Virus record (IMG/VR): IMGVR_UViG_3300012165_000089
Direction: 5' to 3' (one strand)
Source of the DNA: a virus
Lineage: Duplodnaviria > Heunggongvirae > Uroviricota > Caudoviricetes
Length of the DNA: 25,209 bases
Below the pieces are notes generated by a model. That model was given only the letters and a program-made list of their open reading frames with translations, ran no database searches and was not told the origin of the DNA. Positions 2-22,326 of this stretch are shown in pieces (the first letter of the stretch is position 1; each line of letters starts with the position of its first letter). The translations under genes and the position numbers were made by a program.

Positions 2-331
2 AAAAGATACAGTTCTTTTCTCGGTATCAGCCTTAGTTGCCTTACAAGTCAAATAAATGCGTTTGCGGTGACAATTACCCCTGGAGTCACTGTTGATTAT
101 TTTGATAAATATACAGGTGATAATATCGCTGGTTTGATTTTAGGAACAGTCTTTTGGGTTTTAAGAGTTTCTGGTGTCATATTACTTATGTATGGCATAT
201 ATGGCTATGTGACTGCCAAAAAAGACGGTGAAGCAAACAATATTAACGGCGCTATTGTTAAGATTGTATTTGCGCTCATTTTTTTAACAATGCCATGGAT
301 ATTTAAATCCTTAGGGATTATCACATCATAA
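2..331 (+). CDS. VirB2/TrbC-like pilin-type membrane protein of a Gram-positive T4SS (5'-partial)
   Basis: The frame stays open upstream of the GTG at 68 to the window edge (KRYSSFLGISLSCLTSQINAFA-VTIT, a signal-peptide-like A-F-A site), and 68 has no RBS. Two hydrophobic helices are joined by a short KKDGEA loop. It lies directly upstream of VirB6-like, PrgI and VirB4 genes. Confidence 0.6.
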   Translation, partial: KRYSSFLGISLSCLTSQINAFAVTITPGVTVDYFDKYTGDNIAGLILGTVFWVLRVSGVILLMYGIYGYVTAKKDGEANNINGAIVKIVFALIFLTMPWIFKSLGIITS

Positions 332-353
332 CAATGCGAAAGGAGGGTAAAGA

Positions 354-1706
354 ATGTATAATATGTTATCGTTTCGATTCAAAAACAAAAGCCCCAAAAC
401 AAAAATGATAATAAAACGACTTCTCGTATTTTTATTAACATTATTTTTGTGCGTTCCTGGATTTACATCCTTTGCAGCAACAGAAGATTCGTACCAAGCT
501 GAAATTGATGAGTACCAAGCATACTTACGTGAGGTGGCAGATCAATGTACGGATGCAGATGCAAAGCAAAAATTCGAAAAACTAATTGAAATACTATTTT
601 CAGATGAAGTAAAGAGTAAGTTTACATCCAATGATGAAAATTACAAGACGATCAAAAGCGGGTATACAATTATAAAGGATACGGTCCGTGATACTTGTGG
701 CTTAAATGCTTGGGATGCGTTCTTTGGATCAGATTTAAATGCATGGAATCTCACGAAGCAATGGCAAAGTAAATTTCGAACTGATGCCGAACAATTAGGT
801 ATTGAGTATGGCAATGTATTCAACAATAGAGGTGACGATCAGGATGAGGTACAAAACGCATCAGTAAAGGTAAATATCTTAACTTGGAATCGCGATCAAA
901 ACACAAGCGGTGCAAGTATTAATAATAATGAACGAGGCGTTATTTCTAATTTCCTAAGGTCGTTTGATGGATTTTCTGTTTTTACCGGTATAGTGTCAAG
1001 TATCGCCGTTGCGCTAACGATAGCATTTGGATGTTCGAATTTATTAATGATGACATCTGATCGAAATTTAAGCGATGAAGCATTAATACGGGAATTTGGA
1101 AAAATGCTATTTGGCATATGGTTCATCTTTAATTACAAATTCTTTGCACTGCTAGTCATCAGGCTCGGCACCATTGTTACTGAAAAAGTATTGATTGCTG
1201 ATTTTACTTCAAATCGTGGATTGATTGTTTATAAATGTTTATGCCAATCAATCGTGGAGTTAGTAGAAGAAAAAGGGAATATTTTCAATTTAACAACTTT
1301 TACAACAACCGGTTCGGCAGGAGCTGGCGAAGGTATTGGTAATGTTATATCTAATGGCTTGAGCATCGTGACAAGCTTCGTAGGGGGCGGTATTACGCAA
1401 TTAGCTTCATCATTGGTGATTTACTCTATTGTAGTTGAGATAGGAGTTAGGTACCTATTTACACCATTAGCCATTGCCGATCTATATAGTGAAAAATTCA
1501 GGAGCAATGGGTGGATGTGGATTAAAAAGTTATTCGCCTGCGCATTGCAAGGCGCTGTCGTTTACGCAATTATTTTTGCGACACATGCATTAAAGAATTC
1601 ATTCATATCTACGGATATCACCACGGTAACGGCAATCAATCTAACCATGATTGGTATGTTCGCAAAATCAAGACAAATCGCCAATGACATCATTGGTGTT
1701 CATTAG
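354..1706 (+). CDS. VirB6/TrbL-like polytopic conjugation membrane protein
   Basis: RBS AAGGAGGG. N-terminal TM/signal, then a soluble domain, then several TM segments including IGVRYLFTPLAIA...NGWMWIKKLFACALQG, typical of Gram-positive VirB6-like proteins. Context between pilin and PrgI. Confidence 0.65.
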   Translation: MYNMLSFRFKNKSPKTKMIIKRLLVFLLTLFLCVPGFTSFAATEDSYQAEIDEYQAYLREVADQCTDADAKQKFEKLIEILFSDEVKSKFTSNDENYKTIKSGYTIIKDTVRDTCGLNAWDAFFGSDLNAWNLTKQWQSKFRTDAEQLGIEYGNVFNNRGDDQDEVQNASVKVNILTWNRDQNTSGASINNNERGVISNFLRSFDGFSVFTGIVSSIAVALTIAFGCSNLLMMTSDRNLSDEALIREFGKMLFGIWFIFNYKFFALLVIRLGTIVTEKVLIADFTSNRGLIVYKCLCQSIVELVEEKGNIFNLTTFTTTGSAGAGEGIGNVISNGLSIVTSFVGGGITQLASSLVIYSIVVEIGVRYLFTPLAIADLYSEKFRSNGWMWIKKLFACALQGAVVYAIIFATHALKNSFISTDITTVTAINLTMIGMFAKSRQIANDIIGVH

Positions 1707-1718
1707 GAGGGAAAAACT

Positions 1719-2180
1719 ATGATCATCATGCCTGTACCAAAAGATATCCGTGCTGTGAAGACAAAATTCATCGGTCCACTTACCAAGCGTCAAACGTATG
1801 CCGTCGTATCTGCCGGTATCATTGCCGCAGTAGGTTTTTTTACATTCAGTTCGCTTGTATCGATGGAATCCTTGATTGCAATCATTTCGATTATCGACAC
1901 TCCAATTCTCCTATGCGGGTTCATTGATGTATATGGTATGCCATTTTGGGTGTACGCAAAGGATGTCATAATAAGAAAAATTCTATGTCCTAAACATCGT
2001 CCGTATTGTACCGAAAACACTTATCAGGATTATGCAAAACAAAGTAAAATTACATACGAATATTTAGATGGTGATGTCGAGGAATATACCTTAAAAGAGA
2101 TGAAGCGGAAATCAAAACAAAACAAAAAAAGATTGGAAAAATTCTTACGGGATAATCCGCACTTTAAGCCAATGCCGTAA
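1719..2180 (+). CDS. PrgI-family (VirB3-like) conjugation protein
   Basis: N-terminus VPKDIRAVKTKFIGPLTKRQ, two TM helices and G..GMPFW match the PrgI pattern; upstream of VirB4. Confidence 0.8.
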   Translation: MIIMPVPKDIRAVKTKFIGPLTKRQTYAVVSAGIIAAVGFFTFSSLVSMESLIAIISIIDTPILLCGFIDVYGMPFWVYAKDVIIRKILCPKHRPYCTENTYQDYAKQSKITYEYLDGDVEEYTLKEMKRKSKQNKKRLEKFLRDNPHFKPMP

Positions 2181-2244
2181 TAACTGCCAGTTCATCTCAC
2201 TATCTATAGAGATGGACACTCTTGAATCTGATTTTAATAAATTG

Positions 2245-2270
2245 AGCGGAGCGTAGTTGCTCCGCTTTTT
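2245..2270 (+). terminator. Rho-independent terminator after prgI
   Basis: AGCGGAGC-gtagtt-GCTCCGCT followed by a T run. Confidence 0.8.
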
Positions 2271-2282
2271 AGTTAAAAAAAT

Positions 2283-2292
2283 AATATCCGCA
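2283..2292 (+). promoter_or_regulatory. AATATCCGCA motif, copy 1 (upstream of virB4)
   Basis: Exact 10-mer with an A-rich 5' flank, also at 8454, 16642 and 21906; always just after a terminator and before a new operon. Confidence 0.6.
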
Positions 2293-2421
2293 AACTTATA
2301 ACCAAACAAAACATCTTACTTTCTAACATCTTTAGTAAAAGCAGTGCTTGCTCTCGAAATCGTAAGATTTATTAAAAAAATACCATAATTACTAAGAAAA
2401 AATAGGAAAGGAGTATCATTT

Positions 2422-5013
2422 ATGTTTGGAAAAAAGAAAAATCAAGCAAGTGCTGACGTAACTGAAATTGGAAAGCACTCGTCTGCGGTTCAAAAGCATG
2501 GTGCCGATATTGAACAACAAATCCAGAACTTTTCCGGCGATATCGGTAAAATGGAGTTTGATAAAAAGAAAATCGAACAGAAAAGGTCCGGGAAGAAAAA
2601 AAAGAAGGTAGCAAAATCCAAGATCGAACAGATTAAGAGTATTAAAATCAATAAAACGGCGCAGCAATCAATTCCTTACGACATGGCGTATTTAAATGGA
2701 ATTATTGAATCGGAACGGGGGATTTTTACAAAGTGTTACCGGTTGACAGATGCAAACTTTCGGACAGCGACTCAGGAAGCACAGGATGAAATGTATTTTG
2801 CCTACGGCGATTTGCTAAATTACTTTACACCGGATGTACGTCCGCAAATTGTGATTTTCAATCGCAGTATTGATAGGGAAAAGTTTGAGAGGGAAATTTT
2901 GATTAAAGAGCAGCCTGATGGTTTCGATGACTTGAGAAAAGATATAAATAACACCCTTTTATCTAAAATCAGTGAGGGCCAGAACAATATTTCCCAAGAG
3001 AAGTATTTGACCGTCTCGGTAAGGGCGGAGAATATTGAAATAGCCGCCAGTACTTTCGGGCGTATTGATGGCGAGATCGGACCGCGTATTAAAGCGATTA
3101 ACGAATCATCAACAGAGCCGATGACGCTACAGGAACGCCTGGAGTTGCTTTATAACATCTACAATCAGGACACTGATGTACCGTTCTTCAAAAAAGCAAA
3201 TATTGATGGAAATGAAGTACGTACATTCGATATTGAGTGGATGCAGCAGCTTGGCTTAACCACCAAGGACATTATCGGTCCAAGTGGCATGGTTTTTAAT
3301 GACGATTATTTTAAGTTAGGGGATAAGTTTGGTCGTTGCTTATTCTTAAAGAATCTTCCAACGCAATTGTCGGCAGAGGTTTTAACGGATATTGCAAACA
3401 TACCATGCAATGCTTTAACCAGCGTTCATTTCTCGCCAATGCGCCAAGATGAGGCGATTAAACTTGTGCGTAATCAAATGCTTGAAATTAACCGAAACAT
3501 GGCAGAAGCGGCAAAGCGTGCAGCGAAGAGCGGCCTGGGCGAGAGCATGATTTCGATTGACTTAACACAGTCAAAAAAAGATGCCGACAAGGCATACGAT
3601 GACATTACGGTACGCGATCAAAAATCAATCCTAATGACGATTACTGTAACGGTATTTGCGGATGATATGGATGATCTCGATAAATACTCGAAGATGGTAC
3701 AGAATAATGCCGAGAAACATTTGTGTACCTTGGCGAAGTTGAATTCTCAGCAAGAGAAGGGGTTTAACTCTTGCTTACCCCTTGGGAATAATAAGATTTG
3801 GGTAAACAGACTAATGAATACGGAGTCTGCCGCTCTTTTTATCCCGTTTGAGTCTCAGGAGCTAGTGCAGGAAGGTGGGCATTACTACGGCATCAATGCT
3901 ACTAGCCGCAATCTAATCATGATCAATAGATTGAAGGGCCAAAACTCAAACGGGTTGATATTCGGTATGCCAGGATCTGGTAAGTCTATGTCAGCGAAAT
4001 ATACAATGTCTCAGGCCTTTTTATCTGACCCGAACAATGAAATTTTCGTTATAGATCCGCAAGCTGAGTACCGGCCCTTATGTGAAGCGTTACACGGTCA
4101 AGTTATCCGTATTTCACCTGGTTCAGACACACATATTAATCCGTTTGATATGGATATTACAAAGGACACCAAGGGCGGTGATGATCCAGTGACTGTTAAA
4201 TCGGATTACATTTGTTCGATCTGCGAAAGTGCCATTGGTGGTCATATGGGACTAAACCCAGTTCAAGTTACAATTATTGACCGTTGTGTGCGAATGCTTT
4301 ATGGTCCATACCTGGAACATATGGAGCAACTACGCCTTCGGGGAAGTGAAATCACATGCGATACAAGTGCTTGTCCAACGTTTAAGGATTTTTATAACGT
4401 ACTCGCAAGACAGCCGGAACCAGACGCTGAATATATCCGGTTGGCTATTGAGAAGTACTGTGTTGGTTCCTACAATACCTTTTCTCACCGTACCAATGTT
4501 GATACAAATAATCGCTTCGTTGTATATGATATTCAAGATATTGGTACCGGTATGTCCGAAATCGGTATGCAGGTATGTCTGAATGATATACAGAATCGTA
4601 CGATAGCTAACCGAAAGAGAGATGTTAGAACTTGGATTTTTATCGATGAATTGTACATATTGACACAATCCGAGTTATGTGCAAAAGTCTTAATGTACAT
4701 GTGGAAGCAGTTGCGTAAATTTGGCGGTGTCTTAACTGGAATCACGCACAATGTAGAAGACCTTTTAACCAACAGAGAGTCCCGTGGTATTATCGACACC
4801 ACTCCGTTTATCTTGATGCTGAATCAGTCAAGTGAGAATAGGAATGCGATTGGAGCAATGTTGCATATTTCAGAAGCACAGTTGAACTATATTAAAAATG
4901 CAGATTCCGGTCAGGGACTGATTTATTATGGAAAATCAATTGTTCCTTTCGTTAATAAACTATCAAAGGAATCGCTTATGTATAAAATAACATCTACAAA
5001 CCCTAACGAATAA
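2422..5013 (+). CDS. virB4: VirB4-like conjugative transfer ATPase (TrsE/ConE type)
   Basis: Walker A GMPGSGKS, VIDPQAEY, Walker B WIFIDE, RKFGG, and FILMLNQS...R motifs; 863 aa; RBS GAAAGGAG. Confidence 0.92.
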   Translation: MFGKKKNQASADVTEIGKHSSAVQKHGADIEQQIQNFSGDIGKMEFDKKKIEQKRSGKKKKKVAKSKIEQIKSIKINKTAQQSIPYDMAYLNGIIESERGIFTKCYRLTDANFRTATQEAQDEMYFAYGDLLNYFTPDVRPQIVIFNRSIDREKFEREILIKEQPDGFDDLRKDINNTLLSKISEGQNNISQEKYLTVSVRAENIEIAASTFGRIDGEIGPRIKAINESSTEPMTLQERLELLYNIYNQDTDVPFFKKANIDGNEVRTFDIEWMQQLGLTTKDIIGPSGMVFNDDYFKLGDKFGRCLFLKNLPTQLSAEVLTDIANIPCNALTSVHFSPMRQDEAIKLVRNQMLEINRNMAEAAKRAAKSGLGESMISIDLTQSKKDADKAYDDITVRDQKSILMTITVTVFADDMDDLDKYSKMVQNNAEKHLCTLAKLNSQQEKGFNSCLPLGNNKIWVNRLMNTESAALFIPFESQELVQEGGHYYGINATSRNLIMINRLKGQNSNGLIFGMPGSGKSMSAKYTMSQAFLSDPNNEIFVIDPQAEYRPLCEALHGQVIRISPGSDTHINPFDMDITKDTKGGDDPVTVKSDYICSICESAIGGHMGLNPVQVTIIDRCVRMLYGPYLEHMEQLRLRGSEITCDTSACPTFKDFYNVLARQPEPDAEYIRLAIEKYCVGSYNTFSHRTNVDTNNRFVVYDIQDIGTGMSEIGMQVCLNDIQNRTIANRKRDVRTWIFIDELYILTQSELCAKVLMYMWKQLRKFGGVLTGITHNVEDLLTNRESRGIIDTTPFILMLNQSSENRNAIGAMLHISEAQLNYIKNADSGQGLIYYGKSIVPFVNKLSKESLMYKITSTNPNE

Positions 5014-15463: not shown

Positions 15464-15790
15464 ATGAATAAAATTATTTTAATGGGGCGCTTAACCAGAG
15501 ATCCGGAATTGCGATATTCTCAGGGCGAACGTGCAATGGCTATTGCAAGATATACACTTGCTGTGGATCGTAGAGGTCGTCAAAATGCGGATACAACAGT
15601 TGATTACATTAATATCGTTGCGTTTGATAAGGTTGGCGAGTTTGCCGAAAAACACTTCCGGCAAGGACTGCGAGTTTTAGTATCTGGACGCCTTCAGATT
15701 GGTAGTTATACCAATAAAGAGGGACAAAAGGTAACTACTGCGGAAGTCGTGGTTGATGATCAGGAATTTGCAGATAGCAAACAGACTTAA
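15464..15790 (+). CDS. ssb: Single-stranded DNA-binding protein (OB fold only, no acidic tail)
   Basis: MNKIILMGRLTRDPELRY...DYINIVAF...KHFRQG..VLVSGRLQ; ends EFADSKQT. Confidence 0.9.
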   Translation: MNKIILMGRLTRDPELRYSQGERAMAIARYTLAVDRRGRQNADTTVDYINIVAFDKVGEFAEKHFRQGLRVLVSGRLQIGSYTNKEGQKVTTAEVVVDDQEFADSKQT

Positions 15791-19056: not shown

Positions 19057-19415
19057 AAGCTTTACTCCTCTTTTCATCTGAATAATAAACTATAGCTATC
19101 TTATCACAATATATTTTAATTGAAAATTATCAAATCAAGATTTTTTGATCTCATTGCCGCATGGCTGTGCTTTTTTATTTATCCACAACCTTCTGCATAC
19201 ATAATTCTTTTCAAACGCGAACAGGCATTGGAGAGAAAACAAGCCTAAAAATTATGATATCTGAAAAGTAATTATTTTCGGTCGAAAAAGGAGGAAAGAG
19301 AGCAGTGGGTGCAAGAATCTCTTACGAGCGATTTACAAAAAATTATACAATGAGTATCAAGAAAGCAGATATATAAAACTAAATAAAGCTTAATTATACA
19401 AAGGAGTCTAAAGGT

Positions 19416-20882
19416 ATGAATATTCAAAAGAAATATGAAATGGAAGATCTATATATCAATCTTTACGGAAGAGATCCGCTTTATGTTTACGAAAGAGAAA
19501 TTAAGGGTCTCAATAATATTTCTTACGAAAAGTATTTAAAGGAGTCGATATATTCCTTTAAACAAGCAGGTTCCGTAAATCTTGTTGTAATCGACAATGA
19601 TGATGCAACAGAAGAGACTGAATTAAAACTTCCAGTAATCATAAATGACGGGAGTAAAGCTTCGATGGGTCTAAAAGATAACGTTGCAGACCGTATTGGA
19701 CGACGCATCAATAAGAGTGCTAAGCTGCTATATGAAAAAATAAGAAAAGAGTCTGTTGAAGAATGGAAAAATGATATCAATGCGTTCTATTGTTGGTTTG
19801 ATGCGGAATTATTAAAGTCAACCGGAACTGTTTTTATTCGAATCAACCTTAATAAGCCTTATGGCCCGCAAAACTGCATGCTGACAGATAGTATTAAAAT
19901 CTTAACAGAACCATTAAATGAGAAATTCCATACAAATTTGGATACGCTCTATCGAAAAATGGTTATAACTCATTCAAGAAAGGAATTAGCGCCAGAGTGG
20001 GGATCCACTCATAGCTTCATTCATTGGATTCAAAATCACCAAGAACAAATTCCGGAGCGACCAGTTTTGATTAGAATCAACCGAAATAAGCCTTTCGGCC
20101 CCGATAACTGTAAGTTTAAAAGAGTAGAAGACGTAAGAAGAAATCGTAAAAACTACACGGATGAGGAACAACAGTTAATCGATACTGTAATTGAAATCGG
20201 AAATAGTTATGGAACGGATCCGGTCGCTAAATATGAAAACATTTGCAATTGCGGCGATGTGGATTCAAAAAAATGGACTCTAAAGAAATATCTTAAATGG
20301 GTTATCAAGCAGAATGAAAATAATCATTTTGCGCCTTGCTTAAATCGTCTGAACATCAATAAACCTTATTCCCCAAACAACTGCTATTTCAGTTGGCGAT
20401 CAAGAGGTAAAAGGACACATGGTATGTCTAATACTAAACTGTATCGTAAATATCTCTATTTTACGCGGTATTATCGGGAACATCTGGAAACTAAAATTAC
20501 ATTTGAAGAATTCATGGAAATTGCCTTGAAAGAAAAGGATTATCAGCTAAATTCTCGTATGAAAATAAATTACCAAGATCCCATCACCATGGATAGTGTT
20601 GATTTTATTCAAGATGATAGTGATATAAGTGATATTAATCGCATTTGTGATATTTACCGCACAGAAATAAGAGCCGGTAAAGATGGCTTTGATGGCTTGA
20701 TGAAATTTATGGAATGGACCATTCGACAAGGATATACATCATGGATGGATTTTCAAAAAATTGGCAAAGGCGATTATTCACCAGAAACTTGTGTTTGGGA
20801 TATCTTCACAGCCGATGCTTACATCCGCTCCAAAGGAAGACGCATTACAACAACATTTGAAAATAAAGTCAATGACTCATGA
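19416..20882 (+). CDS. Protein with five tandem degenerate HNH-like (homing-endonuclease-type) repeats; last 4 codons and stop come from the inserted element
   Basis: Repeats RINLNKPYGPQNC, RINRNKPFGPDNC, RLNINKPYSPNNC, KINYQDPITMDSV and KIGKGDYSPETC, four of them preceded by a W/F..F..W-like segment; also THGMSNTKLY. Confidence 0.7.
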   Translation: MNIQKKYEMEDLYINLYGRDPLYVYEREIKGLNNISYEKYLKESIYSFKQAGSVNLVVIDNDDATEETELKLPVIINDGSKASMGLKDNVADRIGRRINKSAKLLYEKIRKESVEEWKNDINAFYCWFDAELLKSTGTVFIRINLNKPYGPQNCMLTDSIKILTEPLNEKFHTNLDTLYRKMVITHSRKELAPEWGSTHSFIHWIQNHQEQIPERPVLIRINRNKPFGPDNCKFKRVEDVRRNRKNYTDEEQQLIDTVIEIGNSYGTDPVAKYENICNCGDVDSKKWTLKKYLKWVIKQNENNHFAPCLNRLNINKPYSPNNCYFSWRSRGKRTHGMSNTKLYRKYLYFTRYYREHLETKITFEEFMEIALKEKDYQLNSRMKINYQDPITMDSVDFIQDDSDISDINRICDIYRTEIRAGKDGFDGLMKFMEWTIRQGYTSWMDFQKIGKGDYSPETCVWDIFTADAYIRSKGRRITTTFENKVNDS

Positions 20883-21101
20883 CTAAAGTCACGAGCTCGT
20901 AAAAGCTCGACATTGATTAGCCTAAGCCTTATCTGACTACGTTATTTTGGTCGATGCACCATAGGGTACTTCTCAAGCTCTATGGCAACTGTCGTTTGTG
21001 GTTAAAAGTCCTGTGGAGTAGGGACGGTGCTGCAAACATGACAAGCCTTTCCAACTTTGGCGATGAGGAAGTAACTACAACTTGATTGTAGGGCTTATAG
21101 C
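20868..21101 (+). ncRNA. Omega RNA (HEARO-like) scaffold; the guide would be the 5' flank
   Basis: Recognisable blocks GTCAAT...ATTGAT-TAGCCTAAG, GACTACGTT, stem CCATAGGG/CTCTATGG, long-range pair TACTTCTCA (20967-20975) with TGAGGAAGTA (21064-21073), TTGGCGA and GGCTTATAGC. The 3' end is approximate. Confidence 0.8.
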
Positions 21102-21206
21102 CACCGTGCTGGGACGGTATATCTCCAGCAACCCATTAAAACGAAAAGGAGTGCGGCTCTCATCTCATGACTTAAGTCACGAGTCTCCGAGCCTGTGTGG
21201 TTGTCA
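20868..21206. mobile_element. Non-autonomous IS200/IS605-superfamily (IscB-type) miniature element, no tnpA or iscB
   Basis: Near-identical subterminal hairpins CTCATGAC-TAAA-GTCACGAG (20876-20895) and CTCATGAC-TTAA-GTCACGAG (21164-21183); begins GTCAA; followed by ATGAA (21207-21211); no ORF inside. Confidence 0.85.
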
Positions 21207-21839
21207 ATGAAAACAAATAAAGTACATTTGAAGGGGACAGTTGTATCAAATTTTGAATTTAACCATAAAAACTATAATCAGAATTTCTATACAGCAAAAC
21301 TAGCTGTAAAGCGCTTGAGTGGGCAAGTCGATACTATCCCCATCATGATTTCAGATGAGACACTTGATATTACTAATAATTACATTGGTAAAACGCTGGG
21401 AGTCACTGGGCAATTTCGTTCTCATATCAAAAACGGCGACACAAGCACTAATTTACTTTTGTATGTCTTTGTCCAGAAGCTTCAATTTTGTGATAATACT
21501 CAGGATTATGTTGACGCTATTACAGATAATTGCGAATTAGTTGCTACTATTGCTAAAACCAACCCCTTGCGGAAAACTCCGCTCGGACGTGAGATTTGCG
21601 AGGTGTTCGCATTAGTAAACCGCGAAAGTGGAAAGCGTGATTATATTCCTTGTATCACTTGGGGTAAAACCGCAAAAATAGCGAACAATTTTGAACCCGG
21701 TACAGAAATTCGCATTTCAGGGCGGGTACAAAGTCGTGAATATTGGAAAAAAAATAGTAATGATGAGATCGAGACACGTACCGCCTACGAAGTATCTGTC
21801 AGAAGACTGGAAATATATTCCGACTTGAAACAGGCTTAA
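21207..21839 (+). CDS. ssb: Clostridial-type single-stranded DNA-binding protein with two OB folds
   Basis: VKRLSGQVDTIPIMIS, GQFRS, RKTPLGREI, VNR...DYIPCITWG, GRVQSREY and TAYEVSV motifs. No good RBS before 21207. Confidence 0.85.
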   Translation: MKTNKVHLKGTVVSNFEFNHKNYNQNFYTAKLAVKRLSGQVDTIPIMISDETLDITNNYIGKTLGVTGQFRSHIKNGDTSTNLLLYVFVQKLQFCDNTQDYVDAITDNCELVATIAKTNPLRKTPLGREICEVFALVNRESGKRDYIPCITWGKTAKIANNFEPGTEIRISGRVQSREYWKKNSNDEIETRTAYEVSVRRLEIYSDLKQA

Positions 21840-21845
21840 ACTATA

Positions 21846-21875
21846 AAAGGGTTGCATAAAGTGCAGCTCTTTTTT
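21846..21875 (+). terminator. Rho-independent terminator
   Basis: AAAGGGTTGCA-taaag-TGCAGCTCTTT (two G-U pairs) plus TTT. Confidence 0.7.
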
Positions 21876-21905
21876 ATGTGAAAAAATAAAAATATGATAA
21901 AAAAC

Positions 21906-21956
21906 AATATCCGCAGTCCTTGTAAAATTGCTTATCACTCTGCAAATTATTAAAAT
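21906..21956 (+). promoter_or_regulatory. AATATCCGCA copy 4 plus SigA promoter
   Basis: Motif 21906-21915, -35 TTGCTT 21928-21933, 17-bp spacer, -10 TAAAAT 21951-21956. Confidence 0.65.
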
Positions 21957-21984
21957 GAACATAGTAAAGAAAAGAGGAGGGTTC

Positions 21985-22326
21985 ATGGATAAAAAAATGA
22001 AATTGCAGATGGAGGAATACCGTCAAAAGATACAGAAGCAATACCAGGCAGAAATTTTTGATTTAAAAGAGAGAAATCGAATTTTAGAAAGGGGAATTGC
22101 GGAGCAACGCCGGTTGCAAGAGGTAAATTTGGAGTTGCAAAAGCAGCTACGTAATCAGGAAGATTGGATTAGACGTCTGTTTGAATACATGGATAACGAA
22201 GGGACTCCAGAGGCTGATAAGATTAAAAAAGAGATTGCAAAGGGCATGATATCAAAAATCCATGGATTAGATGATTTATTGAAAAACATGCAAACTGCTA
22301 TGATGTGCCATTTCGTTAATATATAA
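21985..22326 (+). CDS. Coiled-coil hypothetical protein
   Basis: ATG 21985 behind AGAGGAGG; 113 aa, Q/E/K/R-rich helix. Confidence 0.75.
   Translation: MDKKMKLQMEEYRQKIQKQYQAEIFDLKERNRILERGIAEQRRLQEVNLELQKQLRNQEDWIRRLFEYMDNEGTPEADKIKKEIAKGMISKIHGLDDLLKNMQTAMMCHFVNI

Follow-up and report, generated by a model that had tools for sequence, protein, structure and literature searches.

A stretch of 25,209 nt recorded as viral DNA (IMG/VR record IMGVR_UViG_3300012165_000089; hereafter the window) carries a gene for a protein with degenerate HNH-like repeats (ORF1) and, downstream of it, a gene for a single-stranded DNA-binding (SSB)-like protein, and the two are parted by an insert of 339 nt. The original prediction, which was made from the sequence alone, held that removal of the insert fuses the two reading frames, that the ancestral gene had encoded a double-stranded DNA reader fused to an SSB, and that excision could act as a switch that restores this fusion. 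This raises the question of what the insert is and whether the two genes were ever one. The insert is a non-autonomous IS200/IS605 element of the IscB (ISC, ISGst5-like) group, from which iscB has been lost and in which the gene for the omegaRNA (HEARO) and both hairpins have been kept. Its ends follow the rule of the family, it is multi-copy in the source community, and the available relatives of the locus have two separate genes. The ancestor was probably a pair of genes as well, and the element inserted directly 5' of the ATGAA that holds the start codon of the SSB gene. The features of the locus are collected in Table 1.

Table 1. Coordinates of the two genes, of the insert that parts them and of the parts of the insert (positions in the window).
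Feature	Position	Strand	Remarks
ORF1	19416..20882	+	488 aa, degenerate HNH-like repeats; codons 485-488 and stop (20868-20882) are insert sequence
Expected omegaRNA guide segment	20852..20867	+	16 nt directly 5' of the scaffold, holds the A4 run GAAAATAAA; inferred from the family
Gene-less IS200/IS605 (ISC/ISGst5-like) mini-transposon	20868..21206	+	339 nt; 335 nt if 21203-21206 is flank
Transposon-encoded end motif	20868..20872	-	TTGAC (GTCAA on the plus strand); right end in the transposase's sense
HEARO RNA, IscB omegaRNA scaffold	20868..21075	+	Rfam RF02033, model 1-211 of 211
Subterminal imperfect hairpin	20876..20895		CTCATGACTAAAGTCACGAG
Decayed iscB 3' end remnant	21078..21170	+	about 31 codons, reads ...AGTVYLQQPIKTKRSAALIS*, without start codon
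Second subterminal hairpin	21164..21183		CTCATGACTTAAGTCACGAG; left end in the transposase's sense
Hairpin-to-target stretch	21184..21206	+	23 nt; the last four, GTCA (21203-21206), are extra relative to other copies
Target motif	21207..21211	-	TTCAT (ATGAA on the plus strand); its ATG is the SSB start codon
Double-OB SSB-like gene	21207..21839	+	210 aa; PF00436, two stretches

The first part of the insert matches the HEARO RNA over the full covariance model with 106 bits (gathering score 83, E 3e-21), and its first 209 nt share 91% identity with the scaffold of a full element, L091, that continues into iscB. Near the right end, 55 nt (21146-21200) share 93% identity with the right end of another copy, L039. 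The 69 nt between the parts that match the scaffold and the right end are a decayed IscB C-terminus reading ...IKTKRSAALIS*, which can be compared with the IscB C-termini ...LIERRKALLS* (G034) and ...GLLTGRSTALLS*. The two 20-nt hairpins are 95% alike, and more than 120 metagenome contigs carry the exact 20-mer CTCATGACTAAAGTCACGAG where an IS200/IS605-type element ends. Because its parts match those of full iscB elements and of other copies, the insert is a derivative that has lost iscB and keeps the RNA gene and the ends; iscB is present in the close relatives L091, L013, L014, L079 and G034. In its usual setting, a HEARO RNA is followed by an HNH/IscB ORF, whereas the HEARO of the insert is adjacent to neither iscB nor isrB and only the decayed 3' remnant comes after the scaffold. 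Orphan copies of HEARO are frequent according to its original descriptions. No gene for IscB or for a TnpA/Y1 transposase was found among the scanned ORFs of the window.

Searches with the DNA of the locus led to the same kind of element. With 19416-21839 as the query, only the HEARO core was matched in plasmids, next to iscB genes in four of them, and in both matches that were read (H1 and H4) it lies directly upstream of an annotated iscB. The same query matched nothing in phages. The insert itself, searched against 401 genomes of the order, gave partial HEARO matches only, plus the full element in G034, and the pattern AGTCACGAGTCTC-N8-28-ATGAA had no match in these genomes.

The ends of the insert can be compared with those of the other copies. 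The GTCAA with which it starts coincides with the start of the HEARO model and is conserved in about 18 copies (all those with a readable left end), behind unrelated upstream flanks. On the other side, the ATGAA also adjoins eight other copies with the same right-end type, two of which carry an annotated iscB, and partial copies in the sequencing runs likewise adjoin ATGAA. The end motif TTGAC and the target motif TTCAT differ at positions 3 and 5. Two related copies adjoin ATAAA instead of ATGAA. At the right ends of L096 and L076, near-identical left-end sequences (TCTCCGAACGCAGTATTA) stand next to ATAAA in one and ATGAA in the other, and therefore the third position of the target motif is not strict in this element family. 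There is no target-site duplication under the 339-nt boundaries; the 8-mer GTCAATGA is found at both 20868 and 21203, 335 nt apart, which leaves a boundary ambiguity of 4 nt (GTCA). The stretch between hairpin and target is 16-21 nt in the other copies (21 nt in G034), and that of the insert is the longest. As the end rule seen in the other copies and the published work agree, 20868-21206 are the likeliest boundaries, and they can be held with good, not complete, confidence.

The published work concerns two groups of related transposons. For GstIscB/ISGst5, it has been described that the target motif TTCAT (ATGAA on the opposite strand) lies next to the left end and that the right end forms the border of HEARO (Meers et al. 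2023, bioRxiv 10.1101/2023.03.14.532601). The same work reports that the flank on the 5' side of the scaffold holds the guide of IscB, that end and target motif differ at positions 3 and 5, that excision is scarless and that gene-less relatives exist; insertions are biased toward sites downstream of a co-oriented gene, the spacing between hairpin and target is flexible, and flank capture is described (Meers et al., bioRxiv 10.1101/2023.03.14.532601). The insert shares with ISGst5 of Geobacillus stearothermophilus and its gene-less relatives (PATEs) a HEARO-type omegaRNA bounded by the right end, a TTCAT abutting the left end, an end motif that differs from it at positions 3 and 5, subterminal hairpins, a place downstream of a co-oriented host gene, and protein-less derivatives. 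Unlike these, it has its iscB reduced to about 31 decayed codons with the whole RNA scaffold kept, has 23 nt before the target motif, and resides in the conjugative element of an uncultured Firmicute. ISC transposons have 5'-GTCA ends and an N/ATGA target, both established from genuine empty sites (Kapitonov, Makarova and Koonin 2016, PMC4810608). Like the insert with its 339-nt boundaries, they have a 5'-GTCA terminus, insert just upstream of ATGA without target duplication, and are mostly non-autonomous and mobilised in trans by a Y1 transposase; in contrast to the insert, they encode IscB and their ends are proven by real empty sites, none of which was found for this locus (PMC4810608).

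The predicted joining of the frames could be reproduced. Position 20868 is a codon boundary of ORF1 (19416 + 3 x 484), and when 20868-21206 is deleted in silico, a single open frame of 694 aa results, which reads ...TTFENK/MKTNKVH... across the joint (marked by the slash). It was also correctly predicted that the insert supplies the current stop codon of ORF1, as GTC AAT GAC TCA TGA (20868-20882) lies inside it, and that the ATG of the SSB gene has no ribosome-binding site in either the filled or the empty site. The strength of the ribosome-binding site was taken as the duplex energy between the 18 nt before the start codon and the anti-Shine-Dalgarno sequence. The SSB start has -3.2 kcal/mol with the insert in place and -0.6 or -0.8 in one or the other conceivable empty site, compared with -7.9 to -12.2 kcal/mol for relatives' SSB genes and for other genes in the window.

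The in-frame join is within chance, since one reading frame in three would give the same, and it is most likely incidental. The open frame hinges on the A4 run in GAAAATAAA. With one A more, ORF1 ends in ...FEK-TAA, and with one base fewer it ends in ...FEIK-TGA, the TGA of which overlaps the ATG of the SSB gene; this is the textbook form of coupled genes, into which elements of this family frequently insert. Over its last ten residues, ORF1 resembles the homologues about equally well whether it is read in frame 0 (RRI...FE) or in the shifted one (RAL...KIK*). At the junction, a complete C-terminus of ORF1 meets a complete N-terminus of the SSB with its ATG, and in sequence this looks like two abutting genes. 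The caveat of the original prediction, according to which the ATGA at the junction may be an ordinary stop/start overlap upset by one base, is closer to the best explanation than its headline reading.

The relatives of the two genes point in the same direction. The nine closest homologues of ORF1 (491-533 aa, 41-45% identity) end 3-7 residues past the F/Y of ...TTTFENK, and the homologues overall, with 479-586 aa, do not contain an SSB part. Among the matches in 5.8 billion protein clusters, no ORF1-SSB fusion of about 694 aa was found, and none of the best 150 SSB relatives from 1.84 billion protein representatives is a fusion with ORF1; these 150 are 182-469 aa long, mostly 200-230 aa and stand-alone, and most of them begin at the SSB domain. 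Each of the three homologue loci that were read has its SSB gene as a separate unit, which begins 46, 53 or 158 nt downstream and is preceded by a strong ribosome-binding site. An NrdD-family gene (PF13597) precedes the ORF1 homologue in the two loci with a visible upstream side, and a large gene follows the SSB gene, with SpaA domains in the one locus for which Pfam data are available. The proposed ancestral fusion thus finds no counterpart, as the homologues end where ORF1 ends and have the SSB separate. Two separate ORFs in relatives are the arrangement that had been named as speaking against the fusion, and this is what the available relatives have; these are, on the other hand, only 41-45% identical and do not represent the true empty site of the lineage.

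The empty site itself was searched for as well. The insert is present in all six aligned near-identical loci, and one variant of it is a base shorter. Neither of the two empty-site patterns (gap 0-12 nt) had a match in metagenome or viral contigs. In contigs of the four sequencing runs with the locus, the two flanks were not seen joined without the element; as rare variants are lost from contigs, this does not demonstrate absence. With no empty site found and no TnpA or IscB gene in the window, the part of the original prediction that stands is a mobile insertion, of a family that excises without a scar, the excision of which would join the frames; the ancestral fusion and the restoring switch are not supported.

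Three accounts other than a two-gene ancestor with a 339-nt element have to be weighed. That a single 694-aa ORF1-SSB gene existed before the insertion, was split by the element and is restored as by a switch through transposase-mediated scarless excision is quite unlikely. This account takes the uninterrupted 694-aa frame given by the family-rule boundaries at its word, and such elements leave no scar on excision, which can repair a gene that they interrupt, as Meers et al. demonstrated with lacZ (bioRxiv 10.1101/2023.03.14.532601). It would also be consistent with an SSB start that lacks a ribosome-binding site in both states, and a transposase acting in trans is plausible, with the element family abundant in the same samples and a Y1 transposase gene in one of three related genomes with elements of this kind. 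However, the protein searches gave no fused homologue, the homologue loci that were read have two genes, the junction has the look of two abutting genes, and the frame rests on one base in the A-run. In addition, no empty site was found in the contigs searched, the window has no TnpA gene, and a matching IscB would cut the restored site. It is unlikely that ORF1 and the SSB gene were in a fused state directly before the insertion. It is highly improbable that the 694-aa fusion is functional and that the mini-transposon toggles the conjugative element between a split and a fused form by excision and re-insertion, possibly policed by an IscB in trans; if the fusion were true, a transposon would here operate a switch of protein architecture, of which natural examples are rare.

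The remaining account concerns the boundary and is rather unlikely. In it, the mobile unit is 335 nt long and the GTCA at 21203-21206 belongs to the flank, so that the ancestral sequence would read ...AATAAAGTCAATGAAAAC... and no slip in the A-run would be needed. The repeat of GTCAATGA allows this, and the 19-20 nt between hairpin and flank in the close copies would place the boundary in the window between 21202 and 21203. In-silico excision of 335 nt lets ORF1 end in ...FENKVNENK* (TAA) with a 14-nt overlap with the SSB start and without a fusion, which is a normal overlapping gene pair that requires no later mutation, and the tail ...ENKV... is loosely like the ...EKVKQ* of the nearest homologue. 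Against it, the target would have the sequence of the end motif, GTCAA (TTGAC), instead of that of the target motif, and in ISGst2 a change of the target motif into the end motif abolished excision (Meers et al., bioRxiv 10.1101/2023.03.14.532601). Furthermore, all other copies adjoin AT(G/A)AA, and the spacing is known to be flexible, with 21 nt in G034.

Some points weigh against a two-gene ancestor with a 339-nt element. The right boundary is not certain, as the stretch before ATGAA is the longest seen. The family-rule boundaries without a later mutation leave no stop codon, and a fused ancestor is thus the literal reading. The one-base slip is deduced and not observed, and the A4 run is shared by all six aligned near-identical loci. 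The relatives with two genes, judged by their identity of only 41-45% and by their real spacers, do not show the empty site of this lineage. The lack of a ribosome-binding site at the SSB start in any state is explained equally well by a fusion or by coupling.

Under the preferred two-gene explanation, ORF1 and the SSB gene would before the insertion have been tightly packed and translationally coupled, with ORF1 stopping at a TGA within an ATGA overlap or at a TAA directly ahead of the ATG. The element would then have inserted directly 5' of the ATGAA of the SSB start codon, in the same direction as both genes, and from then on any frame reaching it would meet a stop after a few codons. Because the element supplies stops, a one-base slip in the A-run of GAAAATAAA would be neutral after the insertion, and such a slip may have left the present frame, which would run into the SSB gene by chance if the element were removed. 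The omegaRNA, with its guide at 20852-20867, would probably arise from read-through transcription of ORF1 across the scaffold, as is expected from the family. No further target of this guide segment beyond chance was found in the window. A matching IscB provided in trans would cut the empty site next to ATGAA and the element would be retained; since such cutting favours retention, it argues against the switch idea.

The insert is one of many copies. In the four sequencing runs that contain the locus, the depth is 50-4600 over the element and 11-31 over the flanks, and many different flanks are seen. A copy that is about 7% diverged spans the same deletion junction in these runs. The diverged copy and the excess depth together indicate that the gene-less form is itself multi-copy in the source community. 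In L011 and L012, a variant allele differs from the window at 20920-20995 by one base fewer and four substitutions in the HEARO region, with identical flanks, and therefore the insert has evolved in place.

Of 11 right flanks, 8 have a target-motif ATG that is either an annotated start or the first codon of an ORF of 60 aa or more; the flanks include the window (21207), L013 (3974), L014 (3964), L136 (G034), L079 (5342), L024, L039, L075 and L130. The rule for the ends also yields plausible in-silico empty sites for two other insertions. In G034, the empty site has a response-regulator-like ORF that ends in a TGA overlapping the ATG of the next gene. In L079, an element of 1561 nt lies between AAGGAG-N6 and the ATG of a 148-aa ORF, and in-silico excision restores AAGGAG-N6-ATG. 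The insert is one more copy of an element type that is already known, at a type of site that is known as well, and the case joins a pattern in the literature, in which IscB-type elements that target ATGAA are found precisely at the start codons of host genes. For annotation, this means that a supposed split fusion gene is corrected to two ordinary neighbouring genes parted by a well-known selfish element, and that the last four residues and the stop codon of ORF1 are transposon sequence. At no fewer than three insertions, L013 (2440-2459), L136 (G034, at the left end) and the window (20868-20882), the host ORF upstream reads into the element and is ended by a stop codon within the initial 15-20 nt of the HEARO scaffold. 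Micro-elements of about 45 nt in L024 (around 3951-3995) and L075 (around 1717-1764) consist of GTCAA, one hairpin, a stretch of 16-19 nt and ATGAA, as if the two ends of a transposon had collapsed into one shared hairpin.

Other signals within the element were also considered. All elements have a conserved GGAG on the 5' side of the left-end stem, and a portable ribosome-binding site was considered and rejected, as the conserved IscB C-terminus ...IERRK... explains the GGAG. The RNA fold of 21136-21225 is no better than that of shuffled sequences (z = -0.4), and a scan of 19100-22100 for promoters and terminators gave no more sites than expected by chance. A frame of 42 codons inside the element (21082-21210) has a TTG start, a GAGGAAG 10-12 nt upstream and a TGA that overlaps the ATG of the SSB gene; if translated, it may couple ribosomes to the SSB gene, and it may also be due to chance.

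The window is part of a Firmicute conjugative element with PrgI, a VirB4-like ATPase, an NAD-dependent ligase, a SpaA-type surface protein and a second SSB, and near-identical or identical copies are found in metagenome contigs of up to 89 kb. ORF1 has only a partial match to a PHROG HNH endonuclease, and a profile of its homologues gave no meaningful match among solved structures. In the SSB-like protein, residues 2-92 and 109-186 each match solved SSBs, which indicates two OB folds, both of the SSB family. The insert separates the SSB gene from the upstream stop codon by 324 nt, and with no ribosome-binding site at its start, the SSB copy behind the insertion may be poorly expressed. A second SSB gene at 15464-15790 encodes a canonical single-OB protein (PF00436, E 2e-27) in the same conjugative element, and given this gene, the two-OB SSB behind the insertion may be dispensable.

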